Assembly: GCF_044324785.1 (NCBI RefSeq)
Contig: NZ_CP172127.1
Reading direction: 5' to 3' (one strand)
Source of the DNA: Escherichia coli
GTDB taxonomy: Bacteria; Pseudomonadota; Gammaproteobacteria; Enterobacterales; Enterobacteriaceae
Length of the DNA: 64,000 nt
The notes under the pieces: generated by a model
Seen by the model: only the letters and a program-made list of their open reading frames with translations
What the model was told of the DNA's origin: nothing
Database searches by the model: none
Program-made: the position numbers and the translations under genes
Shown here: in pieces, positions 6,221 through 16,301 of the stretch
Position numbering within the stretch: the first letter of the stretch is position 1
How the letters are laid out: every line of letters starts with the position of its first letter

Positions 6221-6310
6221 ATTGACTTAGAAAAAGCCCGGGGCTATAGTTTCCGCGCAGCCGCAAAATCGGTTGCCGGGATTGGCGTCCCGGATATCTA
6301 AGTGACGCAT

Positions 6311-6331
6311 AGCCGCGTTAGCGGTTTTTTT
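6311..6331 (+). terminator. Weak intrinsic terminator-like hairpin with a T7 run
   Basis: agccgc-gtta-gcggtt followed by ttttttt. Confidence 0.35.
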
Positions 6332-6430
6332 ATGTGTTAGGCACGGCCACATTCGCATTATGGTGGGCTGTGTGGGGGCTTCTGCGGAAGCGCCGGGTTC
6401 ACTTAGCCGGTTACGCCAACCCTGCACAGT

Positions 6431-6463
6431 TCACCACCAGATGATTGGCGTCGCTGGTGGTGA
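6431..6463 (+). promoter_or_regulatory. 10-bp perfect stem-loop abutting the start codon of the Ant-like gene
   Basis: tcaccaccag (6431-6440) pairs with ctggtggtga (6454-6463), with a 13-nt loop. The right arm carries the only SD-like GGTGG and ends at ATG 6463. Confidence 0.5.
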
Positions 6464-9398: not shown

Positions 9399-10064
9399 AT
9401 GAAAGCCGACAACTTAAGAATTATAGAGAATGGCAAATATGTTTTCGATATGTTCTTGGATACTGGTGAATTTTACTATACAAGTCATGCCTTTGACACG
9501 AGAGAAGATGCAAAAAGCTGGATGGAAGAATGGCAGATTTGGGCAAATAATGTATCGAGTGGGAAAGTAAGTAGTATTTATTATATTTTACAAGTGCCTG
9601 ATACTTGGGCCGGTTCTTCAGATAAAAATAACCCTTACTCGGGACTTTATGTGAAAATAGGGCGTTCCAATAATGTGCTAAAAAGGTTGTCTAACCTGCA
9701 GACAGGTGCATTTGGTCAATTAATATTACACGCTTTGGAACCTGGTGGTTCAGAAAAAGAAAACTATCTTCATGAAAAATTTAGCAACGAAAGACGTCAA
9801 GGTGAATGGTTTGTTTGTACTAAGGAACTTACCAAGCATATATTTACAACATGGTTTAAAAACAAAATGCTCCCACCAGAACATCAAATAAAAATAATGC
9901 AGCTCGCAGAAAGAATAGGTATTTATTCGCATGTTCATACACTAATGGGGGGGAAGCCAGACTTAGTAAACCCATCTATTAGTGAACCTTGGGAATGCGA
10001 AAAATATGTTTTGGTTGATATGATTTATAGCTCTTTAGCAAAGCAAGTTAATCATAAAAAATAA
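9399..10064 (+). CDS. T5orf172 (GIY-YIG-superfamily) domain protein with YegP/DUF1508-like N-terminus
   Basis: Core YVKIGRSNNVLKRLSNLQTGAFGQLILHALEP...ENYLHEKFSNERRQGEWF fits the T5orf172 pattern (KIG.S.N...RL..LQTG...E..LH..F...R..GEWF). The N-terminal YVFDMFLDTGEFYYTSHAFDTREDAKSWMEEW resembles YegP repeats. Confidence 0.75.
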   Translation: MKADNLRIIENGKYVFDMFLDTGEFYYTSHAFDTREDAKSWMEEWQIWANNVSSGKVSSIYYILQVPDTWAGSSDKNNPYSGLYVKIGRSNNVLKRLSNLQTGAFGQLILHALEPGGSEKENYLHEKFSNERRQGEWFVCTKELTKHIFTTWFKNKMLPPEHQIKIMQLAERIGIYSHVHTLMGGKPDLVNPSISEPWECEKYVLVDMIYSSLAKQVNHKK

Positions 10065-10898: not shown

Positions 10899-11504
10899 TT
10901 ACTTGCGTTTAAAAAGGTATTTTGTCACGACCAGCACGAGGCCGAATACCTCTGTCAAAGTACCGCCCATGTACAACTGGAGCGTTAAGTCTTTAAATAC
11001 AAGCCATTCAGCACCAGTGGCAAAAAATACACCATTCATTATCAAAAGCTGGCAAGCAAGGATAATAAGGAACCATTTGCCATAGCGTTTTTTTAGATCG
11101 ATTTCAGCTTCAAAATCTTTGTTGTTGAGTTGTTTGCGCTCATGCTCAGTATCAAGTGAATTCACCTGTTTCACAGATGTGAACTCGGTCAAGATTTTAC
11201 TCTCAGTACGGGTGACTTGTTGAGAGGGGGTAGGAATTGGAATTCTTTTGATTGACGCAGCTACAGCCATTTTGCGAGCTTCGGCAGCTCTTTTTCTGGC
11301 TATTCCGTGAATACGGGCAGACGGTTTTTTTGGAGCATGCGAAACCTTTGTCTGAGGTGAAGTTTCGTCAGGAGACTGAACCGGAGTTTCATCCTCCTCC
11401 GGCTCAACCTCTTCTGCTAACTGACGGTGTAGGTTGAGGGAATCCTTCAGTCGGCGTGCAACTTCCTGTTTGAAACGGCTGTTAAAATCGTCATCCGATG
11501 GCAT
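10899..11504 (-). CDS. Orphan membrane protein: ~140-aa charged/Pro-rich N-terminal region plus two C-terminal TM helices
   Basis: Start is 9 nt after the ImmA-like stop. Hydrophobic segments WFLIILACQLLIMNGVFFATGA and LTEVFGLVLVVTKYLF. The N-terminal part is low-complexity with a K/R patch (KKPSARIHGIARKRAAEARK). Confidence 0.7.
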   Translation of the reverse strand: MPSDDDFNSRFKQEVARRLKDSLNLHRQLAEEVEPEEDETPVQSPDETSPQTKVSHAPKKPSARIHGIARKRAAEARKMAVAASIKRIPIPTPSQQVTRTESKILTEFTSVKQVNSLDTEHERKQLNNKDFEAEIDLKKRYGKWFLIILACQLLIMNGVFFATGAEWLVFKDLTLQLYMGGTLTEVFGLVLVVTKYLFKRK

Positions 11505-11513
11505 TCTAAAGCG

Positions 11514-12002
11514 TTACCCCAACCTCAAGTTCTTTAAACGATAAGTCATCGCATCGTCAGATACGCCAAAATGATGCGCCATTATATAACTTGGTTGGCC
11601 GTCAGCGTGCAGTTTTCTGACCTCATCTACCGGCATCAGAAGTTCTGCTGCGAACTTGTTCGCAAAAATTTCATCAGGATGCGTTCCGGCGCTTGCGGTT
11701 TCGCCACGTAAATCAACGTACTCATATTCATCGCTATGCGATGCTTGCCGGGCGATGTAATGCCCCAACTCATGCCCACATGAAAAACGTTGACGAACTT
11801 TGTTGTCATCACTGTTTAGAAAGATCGCTGGATCTTGATCTTTTTGTTTAATCAGTGCGCCAGAAACTTTCCCAGGAAGATCGGTAATAAAAACATCTAA
11901 TCCCATGTCGTGAGCAATTTTCGCTGGATCAACAGGGAAACCACGCCCGCACCAGAACGTGTCCAGCACTCGCCGGGCGTGCTCTCTTGGGTTGGTAGCC
12001 AT
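11514..12002 (-). CDS. ImmA/IrrE-family (M78, DUF955) zinc metallopeptidase
   Basis: HEXXH as SCGHELGHYI, plus the downstream family motif DEIFANKFAAELLMP. GGAGG 7 nt upstream of the ATG. Confidence 0.85.
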   Translation of the reverse strand: MATNPREHARRVLDTFWCGRGFPVDPAKIAHDMGLDVFITDLPGKVSGALIKQKDQDPAIFLNSDDNKVRQRFSCGHELGHYIARQASHSDEYEYVDLRGETASAGTHPDEIFANKFAAELLMPVDEVRKLHADGQPSYIMAHHFGVSDDAMTYRLKNLRLG

Positions 12003-12074
12003 AGCTCCTCCAGTTACTGCATTACGATTATTGGTCGAAATATAGACAACATGTTCCGTACCACATTCCTGTAA

Positions 12075-12093
12075 AAGTGCAAATTCTGCACTT
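12075..12093. promoter_or_regulatory. Perfect inverted repeat AAGTGCA-aattc-TGCACTT upstream of the ImmA-like operon
   Basis: 7-bp arms with a 5-bp spacer, ~75 bp upstream of the ImmA-like start. A related site lies at 12929-12947. Confidence 0.45.
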
Positions 12094-12435
12094 CTGGTAC
12101 GATATTAACTGTTAGTAGTAAAGTCTTCCAGATAAATCACTTTAAAATCGTGTGAATTGCTTGCTTTTTACGCTGCATTGTGGATGGCTCAATGTTTCCA
12201 GTAAAAACATACATGATAATCATGACATTAGTGGTTTTTTAGGCGTCCATCTGTTTCTTAAAAAAATGGATGCCACAAGCGCCCGGATGAGAACAGGAAG
12301 GGAAGGCTATTACATGTGTGATTTATTACATCTGTAAAAAAATACAGATCTAACCTGATCTTTTCATTGAAGTTTTTCTTGGTCCTGGATAGGATCTGGA
12401 GGTTGCGAAGATTTTAGAGTCGCATCAAAGGGAAA

Positions 12436-12461
12436 GCCCTGACAGCGCCAACTGTCAGGGC
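12436..12461 (-). terminator. 10-bp GC-rich hairpin, terminator-like on the minus strand
   Basis: gccctgacag-cgccaa-ctgtcagggc. On the minus strand it is followed by tttcccttt. Confidence 0.4.
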
Positions 12462-12537
12462 CATACAAAAACATCGGTTAATGCTTTCGTTGAGATCTCG
12501 GTTTGGGAGATTACCTCAACCGGGATCCCGTGTAAAG

Positions 12538-12572
12538 CATTCATTGCCGAAAATGATATAGGTCAATGAATG
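12538..12572 (+). promoter_or_regulatory. 9-bp inverted repeat whose right arm contains the start codon of the 92-aa gene
   Basis: cattcattg (12538-12546) and caatgaatg (12564-12572) with a 17-nt spacer. The ATG is at 12570. Confidence 0.4.
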
Positions 12573-12848
12573 AAACACATCTGTAAAAAGTCACATCGTC
12601 ACGACAGTATGTTTGATGTTCTTTCCGCAAATCAGGGGAACGTTGGGCGGCACAAATGTTGTGGATGTGCCTATGATAAAGGTATGTGGCACGCATTAAT
12701 TGGCGTTCCACGTGCGGTTGATGACTCTGTTTTAGGTGATTTGCCCGAAAGCCAGGCCGGGCATGTACGTCATAAAGATGCTTTTGAAGCATATAACATG
12801 GGATATGACCATGGGATGCATAAAAAAGCCTACGGCATGGCCTCATAA
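12570..12848 (+). CDS. Cys/His-rich small protein (92 aa), putative metal-binding
   Basis: ORF followed by a strong intrinsic terminator. Sequence contains GRHKCCGCAYDKG and many His. No family recognised. Confidence 0.6.
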   Translation: MKHICKKSHRHDSMFDVLSANQGNVGRHKCCGCAYDKGMWHALIGVPRAVDDSVLGDLPESQAGHVRHKDAFEAYNMGYDHGMHKKAYGMAS

Positions 12849-12868
12849 CCAGGTGTAACTTATTAACT

Positions 12869-12896
12869 AACCCGCTTCGGCGGGTTTTCTTTTTTA
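12869..12896 (+). terminator. Intrinsic terminator
   Basis: aacccgc-ttcg-gcgggtt followed by ttctttttt. Confidence 0.8.
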
Positions 12897-12928
12897 TAGA
12901 ACCCTGCGATGTGAAAACGAATAATAAA

Positions 12929-12947
12929 TTGTGCAAATAGTGCAGTT
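12929..12947. promoter_or_regulatory. Imperfect inverted repeat TTGTGCA-aatag-TGCAGTT, related to the 12075-12093 site
   Basis: Shares GTGCAAAT..TGCA.TT with site 12075-12093 (15 of 19 positions). ~20 bp upstream of ATG 12967. Confidence 0.4.
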
Positions 12948-12966
12948 TTTATTATTCGAGGTAATT

Positions 12967-13608
12967 ATGAAAACCTTCTATGAGGGCTGGCCTGAAACTT
13001 TCGTTAGCCGGTTAGATATGTTACGGGCGTTGGATGATCGCGGTTCGACCCGGAGGCTCTATCTTGAGCGGACCGGAGCAATATTTGGCGCTCTGGCAGA
13101 AGAGATACGTACAGCCGTTGCCGGGCATCCTGAAACTGACGCGAGTGAACTTGATATCGGGCCGCTATATCGCTATTACAAACGTGGAGAAAAGGGGGAT
13201 CCGCTGGCTGACTTACTTATTAAATTGGCTCCACCAACCTGTGAACGGGTTCGTATATCTCCTGAAGTGTACACAATCCCGTATCTGTTTTTTGCACTGT
13301 TGATAGCGCAAGGCGCTGACAACGATGCCCGAGATTTTTTCAATATGATGATGCGACCGTTGATCATCGCCTACCGCTTCAAACAACTGGCGCGCTACCT
13401 TGGCACGAAGGGCGGAGGACGACCACAGCACAGATTAAAAAGTGAAGCCATTGAACTGGCTGATCGTTTTTTTACTGAAAACCCGACTGCGCCATTATCG
13501 CGTGGTGTGCAATACATATCCGGTATTTTTGTGGCGAAATACTCCGATCCACCTGCAGCCTCGACGATTAGAAAATGGTTAATTTCAATTTACAGGAGTG
13601 ATAAATAA
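12967..13608 (+). CDS. Hypothetical protein (213 aa)
   Basis: ORF with GAGG upstream of ATG 12967 (the track ORF opens at GTG 12931). No recognisable motif. Confidence 0.55.
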   Translation: MKTFYEGWPETFVSRLDMLRALDDRGSTRRLYLERTGAIFGALAEEIRTAVAGHPETDASELDIGPLYRYYKRGEKGDPLADLLIKLAPPTCERVRISPEVYTIPYLFFALLIAQGADNDARDFFNMMMRPLIIAYRFKQLARYLGTKGGGRPQHRLKSEAIELADRFFTENPTAPLSRGVQYISGIFVAKYSDPPAASTIRKWLISIYRSDK

Positions 13609-14613: not shown

Positions 14614-14903
14614 AAAAAATCGACCTGAGAAAAGCTGCACGCGGTCGCGCTTGTACTGTGCGTATCCCCGGTGTGTGCAATCACAATCCTGAAACCAGTG
14701 TACTGGCTCACTACCACCTCGCCGGAACATGCGGAACAGCAATCAAACCACACGATATGCAGGGCGCTATCGCCTGCAGTGCGTGTCACGATGCTATCGA
14801 CGGACGTACAAAAACAGATTACGAGCGTGATTCCTTATTACTGATGCACACAGAGGGCGTTTTAAGGACGTTGGCCATCTGGCGTAACGAGGGATTCATC
14901 TGA
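14610..14903 (+). CDS. YbcO-like protein (DUF1364, putative nuclease)
   Basis: DLRKAARGRACTVRIPGVCNHNPETSVLAH...ACSACHDAIDGR closely parallels DLP12 YbcO. Confidence 0.8.
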   Translation: MKKIDLRKAARGRACTVRIPGVCNHNPETSVLAHYHLAGTCGTAIKPHDMQGAIACSACHDAIDGRTKTDYERDSLLLMHTEGVLRTLAIWRNEGFI

Positions 14904-15574
14904 TGAGTAACGAGTATTTGTTGGAATATACCCGCATAAAACTGCGCGCTGCATTGCGGGATTTGTCTGGTGGTTCTAAGGGGCAGCTGGAAGCATTGTG
15001 TGAGCACCCGCCGGCAGACAAAAACGCATATCCACGCAAACATATTCATCGTGTGCAACTGGAGGACCGGACCGTTGATGCTCTGGTTACGCCAGTTTAC
15101 GCCCTGGAAAGTTTCAGCAGACGTCGTCCCGCGCCGCCGATGAATGATTTTGAATTCGCTGATTCATCGTGGCGCCGCGCCGTGAATTCGCTCGACGTTA
15201 GCCAGCAGGCGTGGTTGCGCTATTGCTACGGTGGTCACCTGGCGTTCAAACACCAAACAGCTATTTGTGAGGCTGTCTGGAGTCGCTATAAAGGACACAT
15301 CCCCGCGTCAACTCAGAGAAAAGTAGCTAAGCGCCTGCTTTCGTTGGTGTGGTTGTCCGTGCAGGCGGTTGCAGCAGCAAATAAACGCGAGGATTTTAAG
15401 GAGATGGCTGGATCTGCGCTAGCTGGAATGTTGTCTGTTTCTCGTTCCACCTGGTGCGAAACATACTCCCCGCACTGGGTAGGAATGAAAGAGGCGGTGA
15501 GAGCACTTGATGAAATGGCACTTCTTGCAACTTTGCATCATTATCAAAACCATTTAGACGACGTTTGCGTATAA
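14903..15574 (+). CDS. Late-gene antiterminator Q (phage 21/933W type)
   Basis: Motifs DLSGGSKGQLEA, SSWRRAVNSL..QAWLRYCYG, LVWLSVQAV and W.ETYSPHW. Followed by a promoter/terminator leader and then lysis genes. Confidence 0.85.
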   Translation: MSNEYLLEYTRIKLRAALRDLSGGSKGQLEALCEHPPADKNAYPRKHIHRVQLEDRTVDALVTPVYALESFSRRRPAPPMNDFEFADSSWRRAVNSLDVSQQAWLRYCYGGHLAFKHQTAICEAVWSRYKGHIPASTQRKVAKRLLSLVWLSVQAVAAANKREDFKEMAGSALAGMLSVSRSTWCETYSPHWVGMKEAVRALDEMALLATLHHYQNHLDDVCV

Positions 15575-15844: not shown

Positions 15845-15935
15845 TAGACTGGCCCCCTGAATCTCCAGACAACCAATATCACTTAAATAAGTGATAGTCT
15901 TAATACTAGTTTTTAGACTAGTCATTGGAGAGCAG

Positions 15936-16301
15936 ATGATTGATGTCTTAGGACCGGAGAAACGCAGACGGCGTACTACACAGGAAAAGATCGCTATTGT
16001 TCAGCAGAGTTTTGAACCGGGAATGACGGTCTCCCTTGTTGCCCGGCAACACGGTGTGGCAGCCAGCCAGTTATTTCTCTGGCGCAAGCAATACCAGGAG
16101 GGAAGTCTTACTGCTGTGGCCGCAGGAGAGCAGGTCGTTCCTGCCTCTGAACTTGCTGCTGCCATGAAGCAGATTAAAGAACTCCAGCGCCTGCTCGGCA
16201 AAAAAACGATGGAAAATGAACTCCTTAAAGAAGCCGTTGAATACGGGCGTGCAAAAAAGTGGATAGCGCACGCGCCCTTATTGCCCGGGGATGGGGAGTA
16301 A
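15936..16301 (+). CDS. insC: IS2 transposase OrfA (InsC)
   Basis: [56 protein letters not shown]..., recognised as IS2 InsC. Confidence 0.95.

Follow-up and report, generated by a model that had tools for sequence, protein, structure and literature searches.

What, if anything, is encoded in the seemingly empty DNA that separates two gene units of a prophage? We asked this of a spacer at positions 12003-12569 of a stretch of Escherichia coli contig NZ_CP172127.1 (the window, meaning the whole 64,000 nucleotides [nt] analyzed), which is a segment of an Escherichia chromosome with a lambdoid prophage adjoining rseX and dsrA. The spacer lies between a minus-strand operon for an ImmA/IrrE-type metallopeptidase and a plus-strand gene for a 92-amino acid (aa) protein. 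An earlier sequence-only reading had seen no convincing open reading frame (ORF) in it, and we agree: there is no conserved ORF, only mechanical ORFs of at most 61 aa. We think it likely that two independently mobile prophage modules meet in the spacer and that its right ∼245 bp are a portable antisense-RNA control cassette. Comparison of related loci shows the conservation of this part, both of its predicted promoters, its covarying pairing and the opposite strand bias of its two hairpins. An apparently empty spacer thus becomes a defined regulatory element.

The non-coding 230 to 245 bp that precede the 92-aa gene (12325-12569) are 70 to 77% identical in more than 30 loci from Escherichia, Salmonella, Pantoea, Yersinia, Rahnella, Citrobacter, and Enterobacter, and they are conserved as well as the coding region or better. 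Counted over all prophages of Enterobacterales and Gilliamella, this stretch precedes homologs of the 92-aa gene in more than 50 loci. On the plus strand, an upstream block (12325-12366; >30 loci) consists of an A-tract box and then a GATC at 12357, just 5′ of the −35 element of a predicted promoter, P(+). This promoter (12367-12395, plus strand) has the −35 hexamer TTGAAG at 12367-12372, a 17-nt spacer and the −10 hexamer TAGGAT at 12390-12395, with a predicted start at ∼12402. Its pattern, TTGAnn-16/17-TAnnAT, recurs in ∼30 of 33 loci, those of Gilliamella, Providencia, and the L105 group among them, with a spacer of variable sequence. A second predicted promoter, P(−), lies on the minus strand (12508-12536), with TTTACA from 12536 to 12531, a 17-nt spacer and TAATCT from 12513 to 12508; it would start transcription at ∼12500. 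Here the pattern TTTAC(A/T)-exactly 17-TAnnnT is kept in 32 of 33 loci and in four lineages, with variants such as TTTACT-17-TAGAAT in Gilliamella, TTTACA-17-TACGAT in the L105 group, and TTTACA-17-TAGACT in Providencia. P(−) is followed by 5 to 8 variable bases and then by a conserved palindrome, mostly GAGATCTC but GTGATCAC in Providencia and GAGCTC in the L105 group; the predicted antisense start in the window falls on its GAGATCTC. We predict that P(+) and P(−) are sigma-70 promoters that face each other ∼100 bp apart. In Enterobacterales, the bases of P(−) can also be read as a plus-strand hairpin, TTGAGATCTC..GAGATTACCTCAA, which we considered as a leader structure and rejected as the main explanation. 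It is absent in Gilliamella, where P(−) persists, and we prefer the promoter reading of this stretch for that reason.

What would P(−) transcribe? The sequence-only reading had noticed a 10-bp GC hairpin at 12436-12461 and had suggested, in passing, that a short minus-strand RNA might end there. The hairpin is a perfect inverted repeat and was called as a terminator-like site on the minus strand in a terminator scan. The RNA itself is now well supported by covariation, strand-specific G.U pairs and a conserved promoter, all of them comparative evidence. We predict a cis-antisense RNA of ∼75 nt (12426-12501, minus strand) with a single-stranded 5′ end (GAGAUCUCAA...), a first stem-loop at 12465-12490, the terminator at 12435-12462 and a UUUCCCUUU tail. 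The minus-strand element, i.e., the small stem-loop and the terminator, was captured in a covariance model, R1, which has exactly one match in the window (12420-12501; 68 bits). Among relatives it matches 58 homolog loci at the same relative position and on the same strand, including Gilliamella, Providencia, and a further group outside the seed.

The terminator hairpin varies freely in sequence between loci and keeps its pairing. All 23 distinct variants fold, with a summed energy of −476 kcal/mol on the minus strand against −426 kcal/mol on the plus strand, and folding them one by one gives 31 G.U pairs on the minus strand and 3 on the plus. The sequence-only reading had proposed a covariation analysis of the spacer; on a model-based alignment, this finds covariation in the terminator. 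There, 90.7% of the cells pair, against 76.8% in shuffles. The covariation score, 0.418, is reached by none of 500 shuffles, which give 0.168, and sliding the pairing partners gives 0.10 or less. Seven of the 10 terminator pairs are altered on both sides, and the R1 alignment holds 75 G.U pairs on the minus strand and 18 on the plus. RNAalifold on plain MAFFT alignments was not a usable route, since it missed or misplaced the terminator; stems of unequal length were misaligned, which per-sequence folding and the model-based alignment solved. The predicted antisense RNA folds with z = −4.84. Like cis-encoded antisense RNAs, it would have an opposite-strand promoter inside its target transcript and a terminator structure conserved on its own strand. 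A search of 11900-13100 against Rfam, at gathering and at permissive thresholds, gave no family that reaches its threshold for the spacer; the best sub-threshold matches, sar (RF00262; 19.6 bits against a gathering threshold of 43) and ctRNA_pGA1 (15.9 against 45 bits), concern terminator hairpins. We also sought a trans target for the antisense 5′ end in the window and found none beyond chance.

The second hairpin belongs to the mRNA. A 9-bp inverted repeat with arms at 12538-12546 and 12564-12572, the right one of which had been noted to hold the ATG of the 92-aa gene, is real, and on the plus strand it forms a hairpin (12539-12571) over the ribosome-binding site (AGG, 12560-12562) and the AUG at 12570. 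All 25 distinct variants fold, and the arms change together between lineages. The bias here runs the other way: the plus strand has a summed energy of −263 kcal/mol and 33 G.U pairs, the minus strand −185 kcal/mol and 7 G.U pairs. Two neighboring hairpins with opposite G.U bias indicate that the bias is not compositional, and both strands of the cassette are probably transcribed.

It is tempting to explain the whole conserved 245 bp more simply, as a plus-strand mRNA leader and nothing else (an attenuator, a thermometer, or a ligand- or protein-binding leader), with the 12436-12461 hairpin as one of its structures. The leader does fold far better than shuffles (z = −5.05), the hairpin over the ribosome-binding site and AUG is a plus-strand structure, and the 12436-12461 hairpin can form in the mRNA too. 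However, pairing at 12436-12461 depends on the G.U pairs that only the minus strand offers (the 31 versus 3 and 75 versus 18 given above), RNAalifold predicts this hairpin on the minus strand only, and no U-tract follows it on the plus strand. A leader alone also leaves unexplained why the minus-strand promoter keeps its exact 17-nt spacing in four lineages when the plus-strand hairpin over the same bases is lost in Gilliamella, and no Rfam leader or riboswitch matches. We regard a leader-only element as quite unlikely.

With an antisense RNA and a leader both in place, the cassette could work as follows. P(+) would start an mRNA at ∼12402 with a ∼165-nt leader, the end of which folds into the hairpin that hides both the AUG of the 92-aa gene and its ribosome-binding site. 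P(−) would start an RNA of ∼75 nt at ∼12500, which would run leftwards through the small stem-loop and stop at the 12435-12462 terminator; it would be fully complementary to about +25 to +100 of the mRNA leader. By analogy with known systems, the antisense RNA and the occluding hairpin might together keep the cargo gene silent in the lysogen. Antisense pairing could trigger duplex-dependent cleavage or block a ribosome loading site, the facing promoters could interfere with each other, and the hairpin at the ribosome-binding site would serve as a second lock.

Several points weigh against this antisense model. We infer both start sites, and the antisense RNA itself, from sequence, and repression by the RNA is assumed from comparable systems. 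In the window, the −10 element of P(−) (TAATCT) and both P(+) hexamers are only moderate matches, and a generic promoter scan called neither promoter. The terminator is followed by no more than a short, interrupted U-tail (UUUCCCUUU). The alignment in which pairs were counted was fitted to the model and so favors the structure, and the sequences are not independent, because many loci are closely related prophages. In addition, GAGATCTC, GTGATCAC, the GAGCTC palindrome and the GATC cluster could equally mark protein-binding DNA.

The 92-aa gene (12570-12848, plus strand) belongs to family phrog_3941 (match at 2.6e-42). Its family conserves C5, H9, C30, and C33 and an SQAGxVRHKD motif, which point to a putative small zinc-binding protein. 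The protein has no Pfam and no PADLOC match; its structure model (predicted local distance difference test score [pLDDT], 85) is helical and soluble and has no fold match among solved structures in the PDB. The start at 12570 is conserved in homologs (MKxICKKxHR). RefSeq annotation of near-identical E. coli prophages uses a start equivalent to 12609, giving 79 aa, and this later start is probably wrong, since the family conserves the one at 12570. An exact 13-nt direct repeat, ACATCTGTAAAAA, has one copy upstream of P(+) (12328-12340) and the other at codons 3 to 7 of the gene (12577-12589); we considered it as a conserved element and set it aside, since other lineages do not keep it as a repeat. 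An intrinsic terminator found by the terminator scan (12869-12895, plus strand) closes the cassette.

The cargo can be exchanged. A 14-base pattern proved too unspecific for scanning viral contigs, giving mostly chance matches. A specific pattern found 33 further copies of the cassette, each with a 92-aa homolog 29 to 56 nt later. The same scan gave 10 loci with the RNA element (51 to 83 bits) and no 92-aa homolog; there, the cargo is a 233-aa protein with a Bro-N domain (L307, 2260-3285; L349, 8230-9202; also L321, L330, L352, L365, L386, L389, L390, and L399). In the alignment of these Bro-N loci, homology spans the whole leader and ends at the start codon, and in L307 the cassette follows a cI-type repressor. 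The 92-aa family also has a life elsewhere. Outside Enterobacterales, it sits in GATC-specific DpnII-type restriction-modification loci (L018 to L084); a Dam-like methyltransferase is present in 42 loci of the family and a DpnII-family endonuclease in 32 (within 4 kb), and the usual gene order is methyltransferase, small protein, endonuclease (e.g., L020, 3094-5125; L018, 2834-4255). In Bacteroidetes, the family forms the C terminus of a DndB-like/DGQHR fusion protein.

Could the conservation then be that of DNA sites rather than of RNA? The window has five GATC sites within 180 bp (12347, 12357, 12393, 12494, and 12524), and GATC density is 14.7 per kb in leaders and 2.6 per kb elsewhere in these loci, a 5.7-fold enrichment. 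Their positions are conserved across lineages, beside both promoters and at the antisense RNA start. On a DNA-level account, the GATC palindromes and the GATC cluster would be bound or methylated by Dam, by SeqA, or by a dedicated regulator (the zinc protein itself might be one), and any antisense RNA would be a by-product. This account draws on the enrichment and placement of GATC, on the RNA-start motif staying palindromic while its sequence changes between lineages, and on the homologs in other phyla that sit in GATC-specific DpnII-type loci or are fused to a DndB-like DNA-binding protein. It fails to explain the compensatory changes in a freely varying hairpin or the strand-specific G.U pattern, and the L105 group has GAGCTC, not GATC, at the RNA start. 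As a replacement for the antisense model we therefore hold it unlikely; as an extra layer the two are compatible and do not exclude each other. Because the leaders are GATC-rich and the cargo family occurs in DpnII-type loci, a methylation-linked role is a reasonable idea, and Dam methylation as an added input on the cassette may be entertained as speculation.

A bolder version would make the cassette a methylation-gated, antisense-locked switch, in which Dam sites at both facing promoters decide how much mRNA and how much antisense RNA is made, the cargo fires only when the DNA is un- or hemimethylated, and the zinc protein reads or acts on GATC. We give this combination a small chance of being right, comparable to that of the DNA-level account. 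If it is true, firing might occur, e.g., while the prophage replicates after induction or when it enters a new cell, and the zinc protein would be a new kind of restriction-modification controller or an anti-restriction factor that phages have borrowed. For a protein family without known function, the GATC-rich control region and the occurrence of the family in DpnII loci together provide a concrete hypothesis.

The antisense cassette accounts for the right part of the spacer; the left part has a different history. Among 431 E. coli genomes that match the spacer, ∼410 match only query positions 1 to 262 (12003-12264), at 95% identity and contiguous with the ImmA operon. Alignment to EC958, an ST131 strain, breaks at ∼12258 and resumes at ∼12886. 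In prophages of the EC958 type, an unrelated 77-aa minus-strand gene replaces the 92-aa cassette, and the 213-aa gene further right (12967-13608, plus strand) is kept together with site B, a palindrome just upstream of it discussed below. The P22-like Salmonella phage BIS08P22 carries a counterpart of 12325-12895 at 69% identity, placed directly downstream of its cI repressor gene. From the EC958 and BIS08P22 comparisons, we assign 12003-12264 to the ImmA module, 12325-12895 to a separate cassette, and site B to the 213-aa module. The first of these segments is the 5′ flank of the minus-strand operon for ImmA and a 201-aa protein and travels with that operon, not with the genes to the right.

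The closest match to the cassette is in Escherichia whittamii Sa2BVA5. The cassette occurs in different contexts. It follows the cI gene in BIS08P22 and in many prophages, directly so in most relatives, and in many loci this cI-type repressor has helix-turn-helix and S24 peptidase domains. Here it lies between the replication genes and Q, in an accessory zone that we placed from the annotation of a 97.6%-identical E. coli prophage. Where ST131-type prophages lack the cassette, ∼40 bp of its 5′ end persist (12338-12378; L002, 5259-5297), with a GATC and the −35 region of P(+). The remnant suggests that the cassette was replaced by recombination inside the promoter.

The junction has also left a trace in bacterial immunity. 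The stretch at 12306-12337 (plus strand) is the protospacer of an E. coli type I-E CRISPR spacer, with an AAG motif at 12303-12305. The iap-side array of E. coli AF39 has a 33-nt match at 100% identity (L003, 1501-1533), in which the 32-nt spacer equals 12306-12337 and is bounded by GAGTTCCCCGCGTCAGCGGGGATAAACCG repeats. This match indicates that the prophage junction has been targeted by CRISPR adaptation. The nearby palindrome ATCTGTA-aaaaaa-TACAGAT, pointed out earlier, is real and starts at 12330; as a candidate conserved element it was dropped, since relatives do not keep it as such.

The sequence-only reading had a different headline, namely, that a single DNA-binding protein might recognize GTGCA-N5-TGCA at two sites, A and B, and through them control both the ImmA operon and the genes downstream, which would make 10899-13608 one functional locus. 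Both sites exist as it described them. Site A (12075-12093), AAGTGCA-aattc-TGCACTT, is a perfect 7+5+7 palindrome and precedes the ImmA start by 73 to 91 nt; site B (12929-12947), TTGTGCA-aatag-TGCAGTT, can be read directly in the sequence, and each of the two sits upstream of genes. A match to site A at 15 or more of 19 positions within 2 kb is rare in shuffles (0.85%), and TGCA-N5-TGCA occurs four times in the window against 0.94 expected, with A and B as two of the four. However, the two sites agree at 14 of 19 positions and not at the 15 claimed, and a second 14/19 match to site A lies elsewhere in the window, which makes the resemblance marginal. The 15-nt motif GTGCA-N5-TGCAC, scanned with at most one mismatch, has four matches in the window against 2.7 expected, i.e., the background level. 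Site A alone is ordinary, because the window has 10 perfect 7-N5-7 palindromes and 20% of spacer shuffles carry at least one perfect 7-bp inverted repeat with a 3- to 8-nt spacer, a class with a window-wide density of 1.19 per kb; the 567-nt spacer has three independent repeats of this class against ∼0.7 expected, a mild excess.

The distribution of the sites in relatives speaks more clearly. Site A occurs only in near-identical copies and is not found upstream of ImmA homologs at 81 to 89% protein identity, where the upstream DNA is unrelated. The viral contig of L162/L178 has site A and no site B, although it has a 213-aa homolog, and L169, L170, L174, L176, and L177 have site B with no site A in the upstream 2.5 kb. 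Half-sites of B vary among otherwise near-identical relatives (TTTTGCA-aataa-TGCAG, ..TGCAA, and ..TGCTG). Site B is also the center of a longer, AT-rich imperfect palindrome of 41 bp (12918-12958) just 5′ of the ribosome-binding site of the 213-aa gene. Its 18-nt arms are 83% complementary, its symmetry differs from that of site B, and it accompanies the 213-aa gene with or without ImmA; we conclude that it and site B belong to the 213-aa gene module.

Nor does a candidate protein present itself. We looked for a DNA-binding gene in the locus and found none. The prophage repressor has operator-like sites of another motif, TTRCAAAT-N3-ATTTGYAA, at 1333 and 1352 (1333-1370) in the repressor/cro intergenic region and, as a third copy ∼600 bp to the left, at 740 (740-758); neither A nor B is among the matches to this operator with three or fewer mismatches. 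A likeness of A and B to the repressor half-site TGCAAAT is confined to one half-site, and we rejected it. With sites that segregate independently, a site B that varies and a motif that is not enriched, the comparisons do not support a shared factor, and we consider one very unlikely. The region is a mosaic in which A and B travel with different modules, and the two sites are no reason to treat the ImmA operon and the genes downstream as a single system. In all, the side remark on a minus-strand RNA led to a real feature, and the headline reading was not supported.

How does the cassette compare with known systems? The closest parallel is sar/ant in immI of P22, where a temperate-phage accessory gene is held off by a cis-antisense RNA of ∼70 nt with a facing promoter and a terminator hairpin at its end. 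The Bro-N cargo of the 10 loci found here adds to the likeness, as this domain is common in antirepressors. Although sar is the best sub-threshold Rfam match to the terminator, the match, at 19.6 against 43 bits, covers the hairpin alone, and the predicted RNA is not a member of that family. In P22, sar overlaps the ant ribosome site, whereas the RNA here would pair 70 to 140 nt upstream of the AUG and a separate mRNA hairpin covers the ribosome site. Arc- or Mnt-like repressor genes, as in P22, are absent here.

Type I toxin-antitoxin systems (hok/sok, ldr/rdl, tisB/istR-1, and zorO/orzO) share other traits: a small gene on a mobile-element module, a long structured leader in which the ribosome site is concealed, and pairing of a short antisense RNA with that leader far upstream of the start codon. 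Their antisense RNA genes overlap the mRNA, and here the predicted RNA (∼12500 to 12426) would lie inside the leader that starts at ∼12402. The cargo is not the short hydrophobic membrane peptide of these systems, judged from its sequence and its helical, soluble model, but a hydrophilic protein of 92 aa that probably binds zinc or, in other loci, a Bro-N protein of 233 aa, and it is interchangeable while the regulatory part is constant. RNA-IN/RNA-OUT of IS10, with its Dam-sensitive pIN, is alike in its facing promoters, in a stable stem-loop antisense RNA of ∼70 nt against the mRNA 5′ end, and in promoter GATC sites that could tie expression to methylation state, a parallel that for our cassette is suggested by GATC conservation. 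RNA-OUT of IS10 lies over the ribosome site of the transposase and shares only ∼36 nt with the mRNA; the overlap here would be ∼75 nt within the leader, and the cassette is not a transposon. Finally, like a phage moron, the cassette has its own predicted promoter, a single gene, its own terminator and differing prophage positions, and P(+), the 92-aa gene, the terminator at 12869-12895 and the varied phage contexts agree with the definition of one. An embedded antisense RNA gene and a regulatory part common to different cargos, both of which we ascribe to this cassette, do not figure in the definition of classical morons.

Literature searches found no description of this antisense/leader element. 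We therefore present the predicted antisense RNA and leader as a previously undescribed pair, carried by prophages of Escherichia, Salmonella, Pantoea, Yersinia, Providencia, and Gilliamella with at least two cargo genes. The region after cI is one that harbors genes expressed or tightly gated in lysogens. Its usual position there suggests that the cassette may govern a function specific to lysogens, for instance, exclusion, anti-repression, or anti-restriction.

The neighbors of the cassette add to the picture of a mixed accessory zone. The operon to its left (10899-12002, minus strand) encodes the 201-aa protein and the metallopeptidase, which matches Peptidase_M78 (1.4e-17) and capP (1.6e-25); in the defense-library ranking, capP is best and RmrA is next. 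There is no helix-turn-helix gene among the adjacent genes, as there would be in an ImmR/ImmA or CapH/CapP pair. The 201-aa partner has no Pfam match and no recognized family; its C terminus appears hydrophobic, judged from its sequence, and we report it as co-transcribed with the peptidase. The two may form an unusual two-gene module. Further left in the same accessory zone, 9399-10064 encodes a 221-aa protein with a GIY-YIG-like T5orf172/MUG113 domain, beside whose gene an IS1 element is inserted in the relative L001. To the right, the Q antiterminator gene (14903-15574) is followed, before the lysis genes, by an ORF at 15891-16301 that we take by eye to be an IS2-like (IS3-family) transposase OrfA. 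The prophage also appears to use antisense RNA in a second place: at 6244-6441, 5′ of a 230-aa ORF, Rfam matches C4 antisense RNA, its a1/b1 targets, and isrK, and these matches indicate a P1/P7-type antisense immunity module in the same prophage.

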